64,000 nucleotides of DNA from Flavobacteriales bacterium (GCA_947463095.1 CANHRE010000001.1:10719-74718), one strand, 5' to 3'. Positions 14,801 to 58,727 are shown, counted from the first letter of the stretch. Numbers and translations: made by a program. The notes: generated from the sequence alone by a model not told the origin.

Positions 14801-15460
14801 CTCATTATCTTCATAGGTGAAATATTGATTCCGGAAGCCCTGAGCCGTGAAATACTCGTTCAAACCGGTTCTCTTACCCAACTGAAACATTCCGCGCTCG
14901 CGCAGGTTACCCATGGGATCAAACACCTCAACCGGGCCATCCGGTAAGTCTTCATGAAACCTGATGCGGGTGGTCTTTTCCGCTAATCCGTAGCTGTTGA
15001 TGTCATAAAAAGTCCAAAGTCCTTCTTTCTTGTCGTTTACATAACTTCCTTCCCAATAAACCACACCCAAGCCATTTTTCATGGTGCTTTGGGTATAAAA
15101 CATGGCCGTACCTTCCTTGCGGTTGTTTTTCATGGAGAAACTTACAGCCACATGGGTGGAATCCTCATGCGCGTAGGTTTGTAAACTGCGTTTGGGAACG
15201 TTGCCAAATTCCGGCAAGGGGTAATAGGCGATATAATCACCGTCAGGCAGTTGATAAGGACAAAAGGGAATGGCCAGTAAGTTCCGGGATTCCAGCACCT
15301 GATGTTCAGCGGTATTGTTTTTCCAGTATGACTCCAGTCGGAATGGAAATACGTAAACCTGTTTCCCTCGGAAAAAGGTCGTTTCGGTTTCCTGTGCCAT
15401 CATTGCGGGGAAAGAACATGCGCCTGAAAGCAACAGTGAAAGGAGGGATATTTTCTTCAT
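11855..15460 (-). CDS. large secreted protein with scattered MORN/YwqK-like repeats
   Basis: 1201 aa with an N-terminal signal peptide (MKKISLLSLLLSGACSFPAMMAQ). It has recurrent G-x-K/R-x-G-x-W-x-Y-x-NG-like repeats, for example GQQKTGWWTYWNEGGQKMKE and GKYRKGLKHGRWLSG. An in-frame duplication gives VSPAEMVSPAEM. There is no T9SS C-terminal domain. Confidence 0.6.
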   Translation of the reverse strand: MKKISLLSLLLSGACSFPAMMAQETETTFFRGKQVYVFPFRLESYWKNNTAEHQVLESRNLLAIPFCPYQLPDGDYIAYYPLPEFGNVPKRSLQTYAHEDSTHVAVSFSMKNNRKEGTAMFYTQSTMKNGLGVVYWEGSYVNDKKEGLWTFYDINSYGLAEKTTRIRFHEDLPDGPVEVFDPMGNLRERGMFQLGKRTGLNEYFTAQGFRNQYFTYEDNELHGWAWDTSIFIMKKQTAGSSEMVWWEHGIKTPRQVVVRGKEREETLFLDSVTQGYLDSGYWYFNARSWATLDSRIFTDGCSLSIDNEESPTYRYVQQELENGQLQYSGIFLGDYRRIETCSKRLISIPEKRESKPGQVLVTNRHLYLDTSVGNLFQLLVEDQGQVVMEAYYAIKDFSLNTLYSKTIETRASPKGAVEFEEDRTADYYRYILKQEVPVVVNLDSTVTRDKHGKVYFEYLKREVYAADTTYILFDRRGSGSNLKSTRPVWKSNISRTADGKLLLTQTSTLHDMPLSFVVQTTTRPAAPEQRGLENNATYDLTDYFLYDQLSDGFPDQVQSKLFLNDRPFYGTWDIRLHKKRFPNGSDKNLSGFHKFRLERIKRPWMFTYDTIIYTKARGGVDWLNAYSQEGNRRWNYHGKRVRDHVSINTSWQAGQLQGDAIMGLQRLQRSIRANYAGGIKHGTEHFEWQYGKKAEVTGFSNNYELGQRTGLYHNPSKPGGDELINYSKGRPDGPQSLQLGISDLRLDFIMRQGRPDLHMLITDNDNGLVRDSLPLKEGLVHGIYRSYSHVQEATVEVSPAEMVSPAEMAISIMMPVTRKASASEIQFKEGYVTGIARFWFDKGGIKAELNFRPEDSVRILSIEPDGRGGFDVRGPQELRFNERTSSRSYATTRNREEESIPLSFEDGKIYWRNAEHLLSLKPYWTADYTYYFLNGQKSQQGRVRGQQKTGWWTYWNEGGQKMKEVDYKPGVIANPAGAGDSLHFKGRIRGYRPGSGILLYEGYVLDEEFSYSCATETDLAFEDIFYTAFYDSTGVQTMRDYSGAVYDYHITGAKQFTGFMNRGKRDSVWFFSTAGNTLTEAGKYRKGLKHGRWLSGDLEGVNYLDNQCFDAAESWRMDALANELDFTEEVYGMGMLLRRERHNIRLDGRSEDIVRFSNFSNAGKKLSLKKLQRRAEGQFDVKEPSRSRTRALHYSRVLPEF

Positions 15461-18538: not shown

Positions 18539-20670
18539 TTAAATCAGCCCTTTGGCTTCTTCAATCCATTTGTGCCATTGTTCCAGACTGGTCATAGAGT
18601 CTTCAGCCTCCATCTCAGCTATGCGTTCATCGGATAGGGCCGCCATGTCAGACAAGGTGTGAACACCGAGTGCCTGCAAGCGCTTTTCAAAAGCCGGTCC
18701 AATTCCTGCAATTTTCTTCAGGTCATCAGCTATTGATTCAGCCTTTTTGGCCTTTTTCTCTTCTGCGGCGGGCGTTTCTTTTGTTACCTTAGCAGCAGGA
18801 GCGTCAGATCTTTCAGCTCTTTCCATCCTTGCGCGCAGTTCGCTCAGTGCCTCAAGTTCACCAAGGGTGGTCTTTTCAGAACTCTTGTTGATTTTCTTGA
18901 TGGTCTTGGAAGCAGTTTTGCGCATTTTATCGCGGCTCGCTTCATCAGCTGCACCTTTCGCTTTCTCAGCACCTTTCCAGATGTTGGTATGCGAAGCAAT
19001 AATGCGCTTTTGGTCTTTACTGAATTCGATTACCTCAAATTCCAGTACATCATCTTCACGAGCGGAAGTATTGTCCTTCTTTTTGATGTGACGAGTGGGT
19101 GCAAAGGCCTCAACTCCATAGGGCAGTTGAACTGTAGCACCTTTTTCATTCACCGAAGTAACGGTTCCCTCGTGAACGCTGCCTACGCTGAAGATAGATT
19201 CGAAGGTATCCCAAGGATTTTCTTCGAGCTGCTTATGACCAAGGCTGAGGCGGCGGTTTTGGGTATCTACTTCCAAAACAACTACTTCCAACTTCTCCCC
19301 TTTTTTGGTGAACTCGGCAGGATGTTTAATTTTCTTATTCCAGCTGAGGTCGGAAACGTGTACAAGGCCGTCAATACCTTCTTCCAGTTCCACGAACAGT
19401 CCGTAGCTGGTCAGGTTCTTCACAACGCCGATGTGGCGTGAATTAACCGGATATTTGTCGGCGATCGTTCCCCATGGGTCAGGAGTAAGCTGTTTGATGC
19501 CAAGTGACATCTTATGCTCATCCTTATCAAGGGCAAGAACCACGCAATCTATTTCATCACCAACCTTCAGGAAGTCCTGAGGATTGCGCAGATGACTGCT
19601 CCAGCTCATTTCACTAACGTGAACAAGGCCTTCAACACCGGGTTTGATTTCAATGAAAGCACCGTAATCAGCAACAGTTACAACTTTTCCTTTCACCTTG
19701 CTGCCGATCTGGATTTCTTCTCCAAGGCTGTTCCATGGGTGTTCAGAAAGCTGCTTCATGCCTAGGCTGATACGCTTCTTCTCGTCATCGAAGTCGAGCA
19801 CTACCACATTGATTTTCTGATCGAGCTTCAACACCTCTTCAGGGTGGTTGATGCGACCCCATGAAATATCGGTGATGTGCAACAGACCGTCAATTCCGCC
19901 AAGATCAACAAACACGCCGAAAGAAGTCATATTTTTCACCGTACCTTCCAGAACCTGCCCTTTTTCAAGGCGCTTCAGGATTTCCAGTTTCTGTGCTTCA
20001 ATATCGTCTTCGATCAGGGCTTTATGAGAAACAACCACGTTTTTATAAACGTCGTTGACCTTCACAATTTTGAAATCCATGTTCTTGCCTACATACTGGT
20101 CGTAGTCGCGAACAGGTTTGGTATCAATTTGGGAACCAGGGAGGAAGGTATCGATGCCGAACACATCTACAACCAAACCACCTTTGGTACGGGAACGAAC
20201 ATAACCGGTAACCACCTGATCATCATTCATGGCTGCCAGGATGCGGTCCCAGGCTGTTTCAGCAAGTGCTTTGCGGCGGCTCAGGATGAGCTGGCCTGCA
20301 GCATCTTCTGCAATGTCCACGAATACTTCAACTTCATCTCCAAGTTTCAGATCGGGCAGGTCGCGAAATTCCTGACGCGGAACAAGTCCATCTGATTTGA
20401 AGCCTACATTCACCACCACGTCTTTATCGTTGATGGCTACCACATGTCCTCTAACTACCTTTTTTTCTTCGATAGGGTTAAAGGTTCCGGCATACTGCTG
20501 CTCCATGGACGCGCGCTCGTTCTTGGTGTACGTGCCGAAGCCGGCACCGTCCATGTCCCAATCAAAATCGTCGTGTGAAGCTGCTGTTGCATTGTTCTTT
20601 GCCGTTACCGGCGCTGTGGTCTCAGGTTGTACCTGTTCGACCTCCTGGTTTTGAGTGTGTTCTGTTGTCA
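18539..20670 (-). CDS. rpsA: 30S ribosomal protein S1 with a C-terminal Lys/Ala/Glu-rich and HhH-containing extension. Proposed TTG start.
   Basis: Multiple S1 repeats are present. The open frame continues to an ATG at 20782, but that would overlap the guaA promoter and start. A TTG at 20670 is preceded by AAAGGAGGAAAC at a 9-nt spacing and by a TAnnTTTG-like -7 box. Confidence 0.8.
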
Positions 20671-24614: not shown

Positions 24615-26036
24615 TTAAGGTCCTACATCATGGTAGGCTGATTCTTCGATATATGGATGGTTCACTGCGATCAGTGACCGCCTGGTCAAAGCTTGCAGCA
24701 CCCAATATGCAAACACTCCGCAAAACATGGTGAACATTCCTATTTCCAGAACACCAACTTCTGCCGCTGATCCAATGGTACCAGGCATGACCATCAGGTA
24801 AACATCATTCCAGTGACCTGTAATCAGTATCAGAGCTGCAATGCTGAGCACCAAAGGATTGCGTTTATTATTCCTGGTCATAAGAATCAGGAATGGAGCC
24901 ACAAAGTTCATGATTACGTTCAGGAAGAACTGGAATTTGAACTGAGGGTCATTAAAGCGATCATAGTAATAAGCTACTTCTTCTGGAATCTGTGCATACC
25001 ATATGAGCAGGAACTGAGCCAACCAGATGTAAGTCCAAAAGATGGAAAAGGCGAACATGAATTTACCAAGGTCATGCACATGCTCATCACTTACAATTTT
25101 CAAGTACCCCTGCGAACGCAGATAGAGCACAAAACAGCAAATGATGGTTAAGGCAGATACCCATCCGGTAGCGAAGTTGTAAACTCCGAAAATGGTACTG
25201 TACCAATGAGCATCCACGCTCATGATAATTAACCAAGACAACACGCTGAAAGAAAAGCCGTAGATAACAGTAAAAGCACCTGAGAAACGAACCGATTTAC
25301 GGAAATTGGTCAGGTCACCCTTAGACACTTCATCTTCTTTTTTGCTCAGGCTGCGCAATTTCAATCCGAACAGGAAGTATATGCTTACAAACAGCAAGGT
25401 GCCAAACAACAAGATGTTGCTGTTCAGGAATCCAGATTTACCGGCAAGAATTTTGTCATAACCAGGAGCACCTTTAGCTATATTCTGATGCTCATAGTGT
25501 GCCCAATGATATAAGTCCTGACGAGCTACAAAAAGCACCACAAGGACGATTACAAGGGCAACCGGAATAAAGGTCAACATTGCTTCCGGGATCCTCTTAA
25601 TCGCAGCACTCCATCCTGCATTAGCCACATGATTCACAGCAATGAAGAATAGCGCAGCAAGAGAGATGATGAGGAAGAAGTAACCGTTTACCAGCAGGTT
25701 TGCCCAAAAGCGGGTGAAAGCAGGCTTGGGGTGTTCCGGGTCTTTGTGGGTTGTTTTCGGAAACAGTGTTTCATGACCGGCATTGTCAACAACCAGGTTA
25801 GGATCTACCTTATGGGCTTCCTGCGCAGCAGCGCCATGATTATCATGACCGGCATGTGTTGCAGGCTTTGCATGACTGTTTGCAGAATGTGAAGAGTCCG
25901 TAGGTAAGGTAAATACCCCCACCACAGTGAGCAGAAGGCCAATAATGGCAGCTCCCAGGGTGAACATTTTAGCTTTAGCGGGAACAACAAACTGTTCCTT
26001 GGAAATTTCGATATGATGCGCTTCGTGATGTGCCAT
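24615..26036 (-). CDS. actF: alternative complex III subunit ActF-like integral membrane protein (NrfD-like)
   Basis: 473 aa and polytopic. It is the last gene of the act cluster and has a His-rich N-terminus. Confidence 0.6.
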   Translation of the reverse strand: MAHHEAHHIEISKEQFVVPAKAKMFTLGAAIIGLLLTVVGVFTLPTDSSHSANSHAKPATHAGHDNHGAAAQEAHKVDPNLVVDNAGHETLFPKTTHKDPEHPKPAFTRFWANLLVNGYFFLIISLAALFFIAVNHVANAGWSAAIKRIPEAMLTFIPVALVIVLVVLFVARQDLYHWAHYEHQNIAKGAPGYDKILAGKSGFLNSNILLFGTLLFVSIYFLFGLKLRSLSKKEDEVSKGDLTNFRKSVRFSGAFTVIYGFSFSVLSWLIIMSVDAHWYSTIFGVYNFATGWVSALTIICCFVLYLRSQGYLKIVSDEHVHDLGKFMFAFSIFWTYIWLAQFLLIWYAQIPEEVAYYYDRFNDPQFKFQFFLNVIMNFVAPFLILMTRNNKRNPLVLSIAALILITGHWNDVYLMVMPGTIGSAAEVGVLEIGMFTMFCGVFAYWVLQALTRRSLIAVNHPYIEESAYHDVGP

Positions 26037-55341: not shown

Positions 55342-55366
55342 GTCAGCGGGGTTGTACCTTTGCCGC

Positions 55367-56512
55367 ATGCATTTCGAAACCAAAGTGCTGCACGCCGGCA
55401 TTGAACCGGATCCGTCTACCGGAGCCATCATGACCCCCATCTTTCAGACCAGCACCTATGTTCAAGCCGCCCCCGGCGAGCACAAAGGCTATGAATACGC
55501 CAGAACGCAAAACCCCACCCGCAATGTGCTGCAGCAAAACCTCGCCGCCCTGGAAGGCGCGGCGCACGGCCTTTGCTTCTCCACCGGCATGGGTGCCGTG
55601 GATGCGGTGATGAAACTGCTGCAACCCGGCGACGAAGTCATCGCCACCAACGACCTGTACGGCGGTACCTACCGCCTGTTTACCAAAATATTCGCGCCCT
55701 ACGGCATCCACTTCCACTTCGTGGATATGGGCAATCCCGAAAAGGTTAATGCCGCCGTGAACGAAAGAACAAAGCTTATTTGGGCAGAAACGCCCACCAA
55801 TCCCCTCCTCAAGATTATTGACATCGCCGCCATGGCCGAAATCAGCAAGGCCGCCGGCGCCCTGCTGGTGGTAGACAATACCTTCGCCTCTCCCTACCTG
55901 CAGCAGCCCATCAGCCTCGGCGCCGACATCGTAATGCACTCGGTGACCAAATACCTCGGCGGCCACTCCGACCTGGTAATGGGCGCGCTGATTACCAACA
56001 GCGACAGCCTCCGCGAGCGGCTGGCATTTATCCAGAACGCCTGCGGTGCCACGCCCGGACCCATGGACTGCTTTCTGGCCCTGCGCGGCATCAAGACCCT
56101 GCACCTGCGCATGCAAAGGCATTGCGAAAACGGAGCCGCCATCGCCGCCTACCTCTCTGAGCATCCGCTGGTGGGCAAGGTGTACTGGCCCGGACTGGAA
56201 ACCCATCCCGGACATCACATCGCGCGGAAGCAGATGCGCGACTTCGGCGGCATGATTTCCTTCACCCTGGCCAATGACACGGTGGAAGCTGCCATGACCT
56301 TCCTGAAAAACACCAAACTGTTCTCCCTGGCTGAATCTCTGGGCGGCGTGGAAAGCCTGGTAGGCCACCCGGCAACCATGACCCATGCCTCCATACCCCG
56401 TGAAGAGCGCATCGCCAACGGACTCAGCGACAGCCTCATCCGCCTGAGCGTAGGTGTAGAGCATGTTAATGACCTGATTGACGACCTGAGCAAGGCGTTG
56501 AAGGCTGTTTAA
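55367..56512 (+). CDS. PLP-dependent trans-sulfuration enzyme (cystathionine gamma-synthase / gamma-lyase family). Compositionally atypical at about 60% GC.
   Basis: The N-terminus TKVLHAG...AIMTPIFQTSTY and a PLP-lysine region SVTKYLGGHSD are present. GC3 is strongly elevated. An antisense ORF at 55343..56464 is a GC artefact. Confidence 0.8.
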   Translation: MHFETKVLHAGIEPDPSTGAIMTPIFQTSTYVQAAPGEHKGYEYARTQNPTRNVLQQNLAALEGAAHGLCFSTGMGAVDAVMKLLQPGDEVIATNDLYGGTYRLFTKIFAPYGIHFHFVDMGNPEKVNAAVNERTKLIWAETPTNPLLKIIDIAAMAEISKAAGALLVVDNTFASPYLQQPISLGADIVMHSVTKYLGGHSDLVMGALITNSDSLRERLAFIQNACGATPGPMDCFLALRGIKTLHLRMQRHCENGAAIAAYLSEHPLVGKVYWPGLETHPGHHIARKQMRDFGGMISFTLANDTVEAAMTFLKNTKLFSLAESLGGVESLVGHPATMTHASIPREERIANGLSDSLIRLSVGVEHVNDLIDDLSKALKAV

Positions 56513-56693
56513 ATACAGGTTCCAAAACTTTCATTAAGTCAATACAAGGAATGAATGCAAAATGGGTCAATAGATTGACCGAATGTGCATTTTCCATGGA
56601 GCATATAAGGGTAAAACCAAGAATTTATCCATGTAATTTTAAAGTTTTAGTTTAAAATTACATGAATCATCTACCCTATCTAAGTTCTAATTC

Positions 56694-57464
56694 ATGAACA
56701 AATCCCGCCTCAAGGCGCTGCTCGACGCTAAAGCCGAACAGTATAACCGAAGGGATTTCGTCCAGAATGACCCCATCCTGATTCCGCATGGCTTCAGCAA
56801 AAAGCAGGACATAGAAATCGCGGCTTTCTTCGCGGCCATGCTGGCCTGGGGACAGCGTGTCACCATTATGGCCAATACTATACGAATTATGGAGGGTATG
56901 GATGGGGCGCCTTACGATTTTATCCTGAATCATGCGGACAATGATCTGAAGCGATTCCGCGGCTTTGTGCACCGTACCTTCAACGAGACCGACCTGCTCT
57001 ATTTCATACACTTCCTGAAGATGCATTACCAAAAGGAAGAGAGTCTGGAATCCGCCTTCAGCCGTTCACTGCGCCGCGGTGATGCCGATTGCGGGAACAC
57101 CCTGATTGGCTTCCACCATTATTTCTTCAGCGAAGAACATCCGGAGCGTACCCGCAAGCATGTCAGCACGCCCGAGCGCGGCAGCGCCTGCAAACGACTG
57201 AACATGTTCCTGCGCTGGATGGTGCGTAAGGACCACAACGGGGTTGACTTCGGAATATGGAACTCCATAAAGCCTTCCCAGCTGATTTGTCCGTTGGATG
57301 TGCATGTGCAGCGGGCCGCCCTGGAACTCGGTTTATTGCAGCGCACCCAGGCCGACTGGAAAGCCGCGCTGGAACTCACGGCCAATCTGAAACACTTCGA
57401 CGCGGAAGACCCTGTGCGCTATGATTTCGCCCTGTTTGGAATCAGTTTGGAAAAATCACGCTAG
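56694..57464 (+). CDS. conserved hypothetical protein (TIGR02757/DUF2400-like)
   Basis: 256 aa. The family assignment is from memory only. The gene is preceded by two perfect palindromes. Confidence 0.4.
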   Translation: MNKSRLKALLDAKAEQYNRRDFVQNDPILIPHGFSKKQDIEIAAFFAAMLAWGQRVTIMANTIRIMEGMDGAPYDFILNHADNDLKRFRGFVHRTFNETDLLYFIHFLKMHYQKEESLESAFSRSLRRGDADCGNTLIGFHHYFFSEEHPERTRKHVSTPERGSACKRLNMFLRWMVRKDHNGVDFGIWNSIKPSQLICPLDVHVQRAALELGLLQRTQADWKAALELTANLKHFDAEDPVRYDFALFGISLEKSR

Positions 57465-57695
57465 ATATAACCAAAAAACTGTCATCCTGAGCTAGTTTAC
57501 CCTGCCTGCCCCCACCGAGTTGCGTAGCAACTGCTTGCCCCCACTGTGGTTCGACATGCTCACCATGACACGCAGCAAGACACCGTGGGGGTGGGGGAGC
57601 GAAGCCGAAGGGAAGGACACCATGACAGGCTTGGTTCCCGACAAGAGTCCAACCCCGCTAATTCCTATGCCAAAACCCGCCGGGTTCGACTCCGC

Positions 57696-58613
57696 TCACC
57701 CAACGGTACAATCCTCTTCCGCGCAGGGCGTGAACTCTGTTTCGATGGTGGCGTGCTGTATGTTCAGATGCTCTAGCCTATGGCGCAACTCTTCCTTGAT
57801 TTCCTGCTCGCGCATTCGGTCCACCTCCGCCTTCAGCAACACATGCATGGTGATGGCGTTGCGCATGCTGCCAATGGCCCAGATATGCAGATGGTGTATG
57901 TTCTGTACGCCGTTCACCTTGAGCGCCTCGCTGTGCACCGCTTCCGGGTCTATGCCGTGCGGAATGCCGTCCAGGGCGAGGCGCACGCTTTCCAAAAGCA
58001 GGCGGTAAGTACCGAACAGAATTACCAGTGCTATCAGGAAACCCATGATGGGATCGGTCAGAGTCCAGCCAGTGTACATAACGATAAGTCCGCTGATCAG
58101 CACGCCCAAAGAAACCAGGGCATCGGCCGCCATATGCAGGAAGGCTGCCCGCACGTTGATGTCATGGCTGTGGCTGCCATCGCGGATAAACAGCCAGGCG
58201 GTGAATCCGTTCACGAGGATGCCCGCAGCGGAGGTGATCACCACCCACTGCCCCTGGATTTCCTGTACCTGGTTGAAGCGCAGGATGGTCGTGCGCATGA
58301 GCAATACCACCATCAGCAAGAGCAGCAGACTGTTCAGCAGTCCTGCCAGCACAGTGGATTTGGCATAACCGTAGGTGTAGGATCGATGTTGTTTCCCTGA
58401 GCTCAGCCGGAAGGCGAACAGCGAGAGGAGCAGACCGAAAACATCGCTGAGGTTATGCGCTGCATCGCTCCACAGGGCCATGGAATTGGACCAGGATGCG
58501 GCCAATGCTTCAACGGCCACAAATGCCAAATTCACAAGCACTCCTGCCATAAATACCCTAACCTGCCGTTCCGGCAGACTTTGGTGATGGTGGTGATGCG
58601 TATGGTTGTGCAT
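57696..58613 (-). CDS. cation diffusion facilitator family transporter (CzcD-like)
   Basis: There is a His-rich N-terminus (HNHTHHHHHQ) and six TM segments. The CDF signature region with the conserved HxxxD motifs is present. Confidence 0.85.
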   Translation of the reverse strand: MHNHTHHHHHQSLPERQVRVFMAGVLVNLAFVAVEALAASWSNSMALWSDAAHNLSDVFGLLLSLFAFRLSSGKQHRSYTYGYAKSTVLAGLLNSLLLLLMVVLLMRTTILRFNQVQEIQGQWVVITSAAGILVNGFTAWLFIRDGSHSHDINVRAAFLHMAADALVSLGVLISGLIVMYTGWTLTDPIMGFLIALVILFGTYRLLLESVRLALDGIPHGIDPEAVHSEALKVNGVQNIHHLHIWAIGSMRNAITMHVLLKAEVDRMREQEIKEELRHRLEHLNIQHATIETEFTPCAEEDCTVG

Positions 58614-58727
58614 GGCCCATGCAATTTAATCAGATAAATACTAGAGATGAGCATGTTCAGCACAGAACAAATTGACAGTATCGATATCTTTGGAGCAAAG
58701 TTTGAATCTAGACCAACACGTTTAACT

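Follow-up and report, generated by a model that had tools for sequence, protein, structure and literature searches.

Among the short palindromic repeats described in bacterial genomes, the repetitive extragenic palindromes (REPs) with a terminal CGTC or TGTC tag are, judged by sequence, the closest described kind to a hairpin repeat that we detected in a spacer between two convergent genes of a Flavobacteriales bacterium (GCA_947463095.1). The spacer occupies positions 57465-57695 of a stretch of 64,000 nucleotides (CANHRE010000001.1:10719-74718, hereafter the window) and is the gap between the stop codons of a gene of the TIGR02757 family on the plus strand and a cation-efflux (CDF) transporter gene on the minus strand. 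The repeat unit is about 26 nt long, with the consensus Y-GTCA (or CGTT), a 4-nt stem, GAGC(N3-4)TCGA, the complementary stem, and Y. We consider it likely that the whole spacer is a hypervariable mosaic of such short REP-like hairpin units and an orphan GC-rich insert, placed at the convergent 3' ends of the two genes.

The CGTC-tagged REPs have been described as four families, CGTC-1 to CGTC-4, which include dRS3 of Neisseria and RPE-4 and RPE-6 of Rickettsia (Di Nocera, De Gregorio and Rocco 2013; PMC3733652). In these families, a perfectly paired stem of 8-9 bp closes a loop of 4-5 nt and the stem sequence serves as the family signature; their translated signatures are VIAGLDPAIH, VIPAKAGI and WIPWSNHGMT (PMC3733652). 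Like them, the present units have an unpaired terminal tag CGTC, often TGTC, and open their stems with A-T and T-A pairs; both kinds are approximately 24-30 nt long and mostly intergenic, often located 3' of genes, and both are represented in Alphaproteobacteria and Bacteroidetes/Chlorobi. The CGTC-tagged REPs have no dedicated transposase, and none was found for the present units in a crude motif search. The inverted dimers of the CGTC/TGTC-tagged REPs, which have spacers of 20-100 bp and are often heterodimers, also have a counterpart in the present family, for which 15 convergent pairs, mostly with different stems, were found among the matches listed, with gaps of 17-39 nt. However, the present units pair over 4-5 bp only and have a loop of 11-12 nt, in place of the 8-9-bp stem and 4-5-nt loop, and it is their stem that varies freely, with compensatory changes, while the GAGC..TCGA loop is invariant across phyla. 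Only by treating G.A/A.G and C.T oppositions as part of the stem would they fit a length pattern of 4+9+4+9. The unit strings were absent from the text and the searched supplements of PMC3733652.

The REPs with a GTAG tag, known from E. coli and Pseudomonas together with bacterial interspersed mosaic elements (BIMEs), REP doublets forming hairpins (REPINs) and a REP-associated tyrosine transposase (RAYT, TnpA-REP), are likewise short palindromes outside genes that have a conserved tetranucleotide 5' to the foot of the hairpin. Similarly to the present units, they are found singly, as inverted doublets or in clusters, vary from strain to strain and are located preferentially at the 3' ends of genes (PMC3733652, PMC6006769). 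In contrast to them, the present units carry a GTCA tag rather than GTAG or GTGG, are accompanied by no RAYT-like open reading frame (ORF) at the examined loci in a crude motif search, appear to have a low copy number in this genome, and share one loop across phyla, while specificity for a RAYT is the rule among REP families. In Bacteroidetes, Y1 transposases of subclass 2.6 accompany "atypical secondary structures" (PMC6006769).

Members of the repeat family in the spacer

The window was scanned, with filters off, with a covariance model, R1, which had been built from outside sequences only and contained no sequence of the window. The best match, at 57546-57570 on the minus strand, was full length (31.1 bits, E=4.9e-6); the second, at 57682-57701 on the same strand (20.3 bits, E=0.004), comprised the stem and loop only and had the tag variant CGTT. 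A third match, at 57480-57498 on the plus strand, was partial (E=2.6). Two complete units (designated U2 and U3) and a split unit (unit A) belong to the family. U2 and unit A carry the TGTC tag.

The initial annotation, made from the sequence of the window, had pointed to two copies of GGTTCGAC..GCTCACC in the spacer and had taken the second of them for a canonical T-loop. Both copies are present, at 57548/57558 and 57683/57694, and are the best two matches in the window to the independently built model R1; they are the spacer motifs that exceed chance. The supposed T-loop motifs belong, on the minus strand, to a hairpin repeat family with dispersed copies.

All other motifs listed in that annotation were found where it had placed them, namely CCCCCAC at 57509 and 57538, GTGGGGG at 57585 and 57591, an inner hairpin GTTGC-GTA-GCAAC, and a near reverse complement, the inverted repeat TGTCATCCTGAGC / GCTCACCATGACA, which is 85% complementary. 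The description of the region as highly structured, by comparison, did not survive testing against dinucleotide shuffles, which gave z=-1.07 for the plus strand and z=-1.90 for the minus strand of the whole spacer. For the part containing the nested blocks (57476-57632), z was -0.29 and 73 of 200 shuffles were equally stable. Within the spacer, only the minus strand of 57636-57712 was significantly more stable than shuffled sequence, with 1 of 200 shuffles as good (Table 1). Two copies of TGCCCCCAC are no more than chance would give (with 0.9 expected, two or more were present in 24 of 100 shuffles), and this doubling stems from a 29-nt tandem duplication.

Spacer haplotypes in related strains

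The identical spacer, together with the window's own proteins, was found on several public contigs. Among 34 loci encoding TIGR02757 relatives in GTDB species representatives, only one (locus L006, with a 94% identical protein) has the CDF junction; the remaining loci encode about 60% identical proteins of Chitinophagaceae and allies and have different neighbours. The protein database contained one close cluster, the members of which yielded a series of four spacer haplotypes. Haplotype H1, with a spacer of 231 or 230 bp, is represented by the window, L001 and L049; H2, with a spacer of 211 bp, by L042-L048; H3 by L006, L040/L041 and L052 (133 bp in L006); and H4 by L051, in which 48 nt lie between the two stop codons. 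The same neighbouring genes are present in all haplotypes (cystathionine gamma-synthase, TIGR02757, CDF, thioredoxin and DUF58). The correspondence between the window and L006 was taken from this haplotype series, a two-sequence MAFFT alignment being misleading.

The flanking genes of H1 and H2 are 98.6-99.0% identical, and their spacers have a single mismatch over about 208 aligned positions. They differ further by an additional A in an A-run and by a replacement, in which 24 nt of H1 (57547-57570) correspond to 5 nt (GATTG) in H2. In H1, U2 takes the place of the hairpin arm of the second of two tandem 29-nt repeats; in the H1/H2 alignment this second repeat is whole in H2 and matches the first, and therefore H2 is the older state and U2 a gain. 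As judged from this alignment, near-identical strains are polymorphic for U2 as a whole unit, which is absent from the 99%-identical strains L042-L048. The single-nucleotide polymorphisms in L049 are not compensatory.

Haplotype H3 is devoid of about 118 nt (57494-57611), which in the window include the first GGTTCGAC copy, the GTTGC-GTA-GCAAC hairpin and every C5AC/GTG5 block, and carries 24 nt extra further right in the spacer. The flanking proteins of the four insert-free loci (L006, L040, L041 and L052) belong to the same 90%-identity cluster, and the complementary blocks of the initial annotation are not conserved even within roughly one genus. At the site of TGTCATCCTGAGC and the adjoining insert of the window, L052 has an intact unit A, TGTCA-TCCT-GAGCTGGTCGA-AGGA. 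This orthologous unit, TGTCATCCTGAGCTGGTCGAAGGAC, matched R1 with 36.3 bits (E=7e-8). The comparison indicates that the C5AC/GTG5 block is an insertion of about 118 nt into the loop of unit A, which sister lineages do not have.

The right-hand part of the spacer would be older. Haplotype H4 retains only its inverted repeat, which corresponds to an old pair of units; each arm of this pair contains the stop codon of one gene, the arm opposite to that with the CDF stop containing the TIGR02757 stop. Three of the insert-free loci (L006, L040 and L052) have a full unit, B, in this part of the spacer. In L040 and L052 it reads GGGTGAGCGGAGTCGAACCC (20.3 bits with R1), the exact reverse complement of window positions 57682-57701, and is located on the strand opposite to U3, 26 nt upstream of the CDF end; in L052, U3 and unit B are 26 nt apart. 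The 24-nt difference in unit B is bordered by AACCC direct repeats. In the window, U3 and the remnant of unit B are, on these alignments, the leftover of the convergent unit pair.

In several sequencing runs, Logan contigs assembled at k=31 break inside the insert, with left ends at 57518 or 57525 and right starts at 57590, and an H2 contig ends at the equivalent of 57588 (affected loci L002, L004, L005, L045, L050 and L053). These break points are not predicted by the known haplotypes; they may be due to G-runs, to a repeat or to haplotypes other than those known.

The repeat family in other genomes and metagenomes

Conservation of the unit ends sharply at positions -1 and +24. A search of a viral-contig collection with the pattern GTCATCCTGAGC-N2-5-TCGAAGGA, which has 20 fixed bases, revealed 40 stretches with 44 copies; several of these are the same locus in different contigs, and all others have unrelated flanks. 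The stem type of the window itself, GTCATGGTGAGC..TCGAACCA, was found in 8 stretches, and a hybrid with non-complementary stems in none. A stem-agnostic pattern, GTCANNNNGAGCGNAGTCGAA, was found in at least 120 stretches of metagenome contigs, and 165 units among the matches listed were compared.

All four stem pairs are of the Watson-Crick type in 133 of the 165 units, and at least 17 stem types were found among the matches listed. With 139 distinct units aligned, the covariation score was 0.686, compared with 0.17 in shuffles, none of 500 of which reached this score; slid controls were all far lower. In the tag, position -1 is occupied by T in 117 and by C in 34 of 160 units, and is followed by an invariant GTC. 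The GC content of the host contigs ranges from 29% to 68%, and 81% of the units lie outside crude ORFs. Relative to genes, the units are slightly overrepresented in convergent spacers and slightly underrepresented in divergent ones; their orientation (46 vs 30) is not decisive. Besides the convergent pairs, tandem arrays also occur. A search of nine unit-rich loci against Rfam (E<=1) returned no family over the units.

The units were found in soil, marine and sludge metagenomes, and matches to R1 confirmed their presence in Pedobacter, a Chitinophagaceae metagenome-assembled genome, Sphingomonas parapaucimobilis, Phocaeicola massiliensis and the cyanobacterium Gloeothece verrucosa, in which the units have a variant loop. 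The family is represented in Bacteroidota and Alphaproteobacteria, with a loop variant in one cyanobacterium. In S. parapaucimobilis, units form doublets, and BLAST placed them at 7-27 sites per replicon. The doublets of this species are located at 20001-20092, in the convergent bfr|der spacer, and at 25029-25116 of an 880-kb replicon labelled "plasmid unnamed1" (L222; NZ_CP155749.1), which carries smpB, der, dapA, greB and ettA and looks chromosomal. Searches of the open literature for the unit sequences as strings returned unrelated primers or nothing; although literature that they do not cover may describe the family, it seems to be uncatalogued.

Several arrangements of units were observed at individual loci. 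Six tandem units spaced by 12 nt (the last by 44 nt) are present at 860-1072 and 1277-1350 of a metagenome contig (L171), with a tRNA gene (78 bits) some 200 nt downstream of them. Two viral contigs (L064 and L084) have three adjacent units in both orientations that share one loop and have the stems GGCT/AGCC, TCCT/AGGA and CATT/AGTG. In another contig (L138, 394-465 and 609-684), a Flavo-1 RNA (Rfam RF01705, 73.9 bits) is located about 150 nt from a convergent unit doublet, which may be a coincidence. A RAYT was also considered between the paired units of L126 and L059, and was rejected since the ORFs there are unrelated.

Organisation of the spacer

The features of the spacer and its flanks are listed in Table 1. 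The convergent position between the TIGR02757 and CDF genes, as originally annotated, was confirmed by NCBIfam.

Table 1. Coordinates of flanking genes, repeat units and other elements at the spacer (positions in the window; a dot denotes no strand).
Feature	Position	Strand	Basis or remark
TIGR02757/DUF2400 family gene, left flank	56694-57464	+	NCBIfam TIGR02757, 211.7 bits; stop TAG 57462-57464
Unit A, 5' part, TGTCA-TCCT-GAGC-T	57480-57493	+	R1 partial match; loop split by insert
Insert found in this lineage only, ~118 nt	57494-57611	.	Replaces 4 nt (GGTC) of unit A loop; absent in L006, L040, L041, L052
Unit X, putative 5' half, GTTTA-CCCT-G	57494-57504	+	Sequence reading; GTTYA tag variant in Sphingomonas (CGTTCA, L222)
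Block Y, GC-rich, ~92 nt	57505-57596	.	Repeat finding; 8-bp terminal inverted repeat CCCCCACC/GGTGGGGG
Inner hairpin GTTGC-GTA-GCAAC	57518-57530	.	Within first 29-nt repeat of block Y
Unit U2, complete, TGTCA-TGGT-GAGCATGTCGA-ACCA-C	57546-57570	-	Best R1 match; first GGTTCGAC..GCTCACC copy
Unit X, putative 3' half, GAGCGAAGCCGA-AGGG-A	57597-57613	+	Loop 11/12 to family consensus; AGGG complements CCCT 57500-57503
Unit A, 3' stem remainder, AGGA-C	57614-57618	+	Comparison with L052
Isolated 5' half-unit, C-TGTCA-TGGT-G	57617-57628	-	Direct repeat CACCATGACA with U2; outer inverted repeat with 57479-57485
Unit B remnant, GAGTCCAACCCC	57645-57656	+	Left arm of old convergent pair; full unit in L052, L040
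Long hairpin of U3 and unit B remnant	57636-57712	-	-31.5 kcal/mol, z=-3.53
Small hairpin with T-run, AACCC-GGC-GGGTT-TT	57672-57686	-	Just 3' of CDF stop; read by eye
Unit U3, CCGTT-GGGT-GAGCGGAGTCGA-ACCC	57681-57706	-	Second GGTTCGAC..GCTCACC copy; overlaps last CDF codons and stop
CDF cation-efflux transporter gene, right flank	57696-58613	-	NCBIfam TIGR01297, 256 bits; stop TGA 57696-57698 inside unit U3

Every C5AC/GTG5 block lies within the insert, as do the inner hairpin and U2. At the edges of the insert, two sequences resemble the halves of a family member, and their complementary stems suggest that they are one further unit, X, for which R1 gave no significant match. In the GC-rich block Y between them, a 29-nt repeat (CTGCYTGCYCCCACYGRRTTGCGYAGCAA) containing a TTGC-GYA-GCAA hairpin is present twice in tandem, and GACACC(GTGGGG)2 comes after it; in L042-L048 this block is uninterrupted. 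In its length of about 92 nt, 8-bp terminal inverted repeat, presence or absence according to lineage and location in a hairpin loop, block Y, and block Y only, resembles small palindromes similar to miniature inverted-repeat transposable elements (MITEs). No clear target-site duplication is visible at block Y, and no second copy was found in the collections searched. A blastn-short search against the window and 39 loci revealed no second copy of the spacer or of block Y, blastn against plasmids gave no match, and peptide searches with three open frames of the insert were also negative. An exact 24-mer scan of metagenome contigs found nothing either, in a collection that evidently lacks even the JGI contigs bearing this locus. 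An element of about 150 bp was observed in an intergenic region of Pedobacter sp. BS3 (L010, approximately 14965-15115); it has perfect 21-bp terminal inverted repeats, AATGAGGGTGTCTCAAAAGTC, and encloses one unit (34.1 bits with R1) and a C5/G5 hairpin. It is similar to a composite MITE, and its layout recalls that of the insert in the window.

The small hairpin at 57672-57686 sits on the CDF strand in the loop of the long hairpin formed by U3 and unit B. It is weakly terminator-like, with a 5-bp stem, AACCC/GGGTT, and TTTT, and was not called by the terminator scan; a similar site is present at the same position in L006 and L051. The long hairpin itself has no T-tract.

Two further features were noted on the left side of the locus. 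Upstream of the TIGR02757 gene, 56513-56693 is an AT-rich spacer for which Rfam returned only noise below threshold (snoR16, E=0.62, and others), and is probably merely a promoter region. An ORF of 373 aa at 55343-56464 on the minus strand, antisense to the cystathionine gamma-synthase gene (55352-56512, plus strand), has no NCBIfam match and is probably a spurious shadow ORF.

Alternative explanations of the spacer

The initial annotation had left three options open, a small structured RNA, stacked terminators, or the 3'-end remnant of a tRNA or tmRNA (transfer-messenger RNA) gene. A remnant of this kind, i.e., the scar of an attachment (att) site left by integrase-mediated integration or excision, is suggested by the 11-mer GGTTCGACTCC at 57683, which corresponds to the T-loop consensus and is followed by GCTCACC where the acceptor strand would be. 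The 11-mer is indeed present; what is missing is the rest of the T-arm, since neither copy has a 5-bp stem closing a 7-nt TTCRANN loop. Around TTCGACT at 57685-57691, the would-be T-stem (57680-84 / 57692-96) pairs at only 2 of 5 positions, and the other T-loop-like copy, at 57550-56, has no T-stem pairing; neither copy has a cloverleaf. ARAGORN predicted no tRNA or tmRNA genes in the 64-kb window, and an Rfam scan of 56500-58700 (E<=10) returned nothing inside 57465-57695 and no tRNA or tmRNA match. Neither an integrase nor an inserted island was found at the junction in this genome or in the relatives examined, which keep the gene order despite much shorter spacers. Moreover, read on the opposite strand, the motif is part of a unit with the consensus loop of the family, GAGCGGAGTCGA, and the 20-mer at 57682-57701 is present in the other orientation in L040 and L052. 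With the T-arm unpaired, ARAGORN and Rfam empty, and no integrase or island, we give this explanation almost no credence.

A structured small RNA or a cis-regulatory element of the 3' untranslated region (3'-UTR), specific to this lineage and formed by the nested complementary blocks, would agree with the fact that several of these blocks can be drawn as nested stems and with the z of -1.9 for the minus-strand fold of the whole spacer. We regard it as very improbable, because no Rfam covariance model matched at E<=10, the blocks are missing from the nearest sister lineages, and the nested part is as stable as shuffled sequence (z=-0.29). In addition, 99%-identical strains differ by a net indel of 19 nt within the proposed stems, and the polymorphisms in L049 are non-compensatory. 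Among the checks proposed along with that annotation, Rfam and ARAGORN yielded no match, folding of both strands the z-scores given above, and the comparison with relatives unconserved blocks; the lack of covariance-model matches and of conserved blocks had been named there as refuting outcomes. By inspection, the motifs required for a hammerhead-like core, a K-turn, CRISPR repeats and an integron attC site are also absent.

The option of stacked terminators fares better, being compatible with a likely role of hairpins at the 3' ends of convergent genes, but it overlooks the cluster of dispersed REP-like hairpin repeats and the lineage-specific insert. In its strict form, it holds that ordinary stacked or bidirectional terminators arose at this site through point mutations, slippage and the correction of quasi-palindromes, so that the likeness to the repeat family is convergence and nothing is mobile. 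As expected for intrinsic bidirectional terminators, the spacer lies between convergent genes and has a strong hairpin (57636-57712, minus strand; z=-3.5) directly 3' of the CDF stop codon, with a small hairpin and T-run of conserved position in its loop; slippage would also give the AACCC direct repeats at the edges of the 24-nt unit-B difference, and block Y contains a local tandem duplication. However, the scan for terminators and promoters called nothing in the spacer, including any canonical GC stem with a T-tract, and shuffled sequences fold as stably as the nested part. A terminator needs neither 11-12 invariant loop bases nor a tag, and U2 and U3 fit a 26-position model derived from unrelated genomes with E=4.9e-6 and 0.004. 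Finally, at U2 the 99%-identical strains differ by precisely one complete unit, which stands in place of 5 nt. Evolution in place is therefore unlikely, although it deserves more weight than either of the RNA-gene explanations. The sole terminator-like call of the scan, at 57720-57732 on the plus strand, lies inside the CDF coding region and is most likely a chance match.

Several observations weigh against the interpretation that we prefer, a mosaic of REP-like hairpin units with an orphan GC-rich insert. Over the 64-kb window, R1 matched nothing comparable outside this spacer, so that a high copy number is unsupported, and only 2-3 R1 matches per 593 kb were found in distant relatives; given this density, the spacer is a local cluster of units. 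No ORF similar to a transposase or RAYT was detected by a regular-expression search for HUH...Y motifs over the examined loci, which is a crude one, and block Y remains single in the collections searched. Unit X and the order of the nested insertions rest on partial matches. Among the stem mismatches, G.T and A.C are equally common (12 vs 9), giving no strand or RNA signal. Folded in isolation, the units reach only -1 to -2.3 kcal/mol, no better than shuffles. The combination of such weak isolated hairpins with strong covariation of the stem suggests that the loop of the unit is itself structured or bound by a protein.

Possible origin and significance

Taking the mosaic interpretation, one could propose the following history of the spacer. 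Both genes would have shared the old unit pair as a hairpin at their 3' ends. Unit A would later have been hit in its loop by unit X, unit X in its loop by the GC-rich block Y, and block Y in one of its hairpins by U2, such that insertions would land preferentially in existing hairpins. The units may spread as DNA hairpins, either by means of a trans-acting enzyme that reads the tag and the loop, in a manner similar to RAYTs and REPs, or by templated copying. In transcripts, the units and the U3/B hairpin could act as 3'-UTR stem-loops that aid termination or block 3' exonucleases; such a 3'-end hairpin or terminator role is deduced here from their sequence and position.

A bolder hypothesis, which we put forward tentatively and consider possible although rather less than even in its chances, is that the 26-nt unit, with its YGTCA tag, free 4-bp stem and invariant GAGC..TCGA loop, is an undescribed mobile hairpin element shared across phyla. 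Its tag and loop would be read by a conserved, putative enzyme that binds or cleaves single-stranded DNA or RNA, and it would insert preferentially in hairpin loops, including those of its own kind. The spacer would then be the product of three or four nested insertions, U2 being the last and still polymorphic between 99%-identical strains.

For the window, these results remove a false lead, the spacer being neither a tRNA scar nor a new small RNA. The mosaic of units explains why the spacers of close strains differ so strongly and why short-read assemblies break at this spacer, although the known haplotypes do not predict the exact break points. As a kind of thing, a mosaic spacer is ordinary; the particular family merits modest follow-up. 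The units are a compact and easily searchable repeat, and in annotation they generate spurious short ORFs and can pass for tRNA T-arms. Their signature, an invariant loop with a free stem, is unusual for a REP-like element and suggests a conserved partner that reads the loop; if such a partner exists, the family would provide a handle on it.

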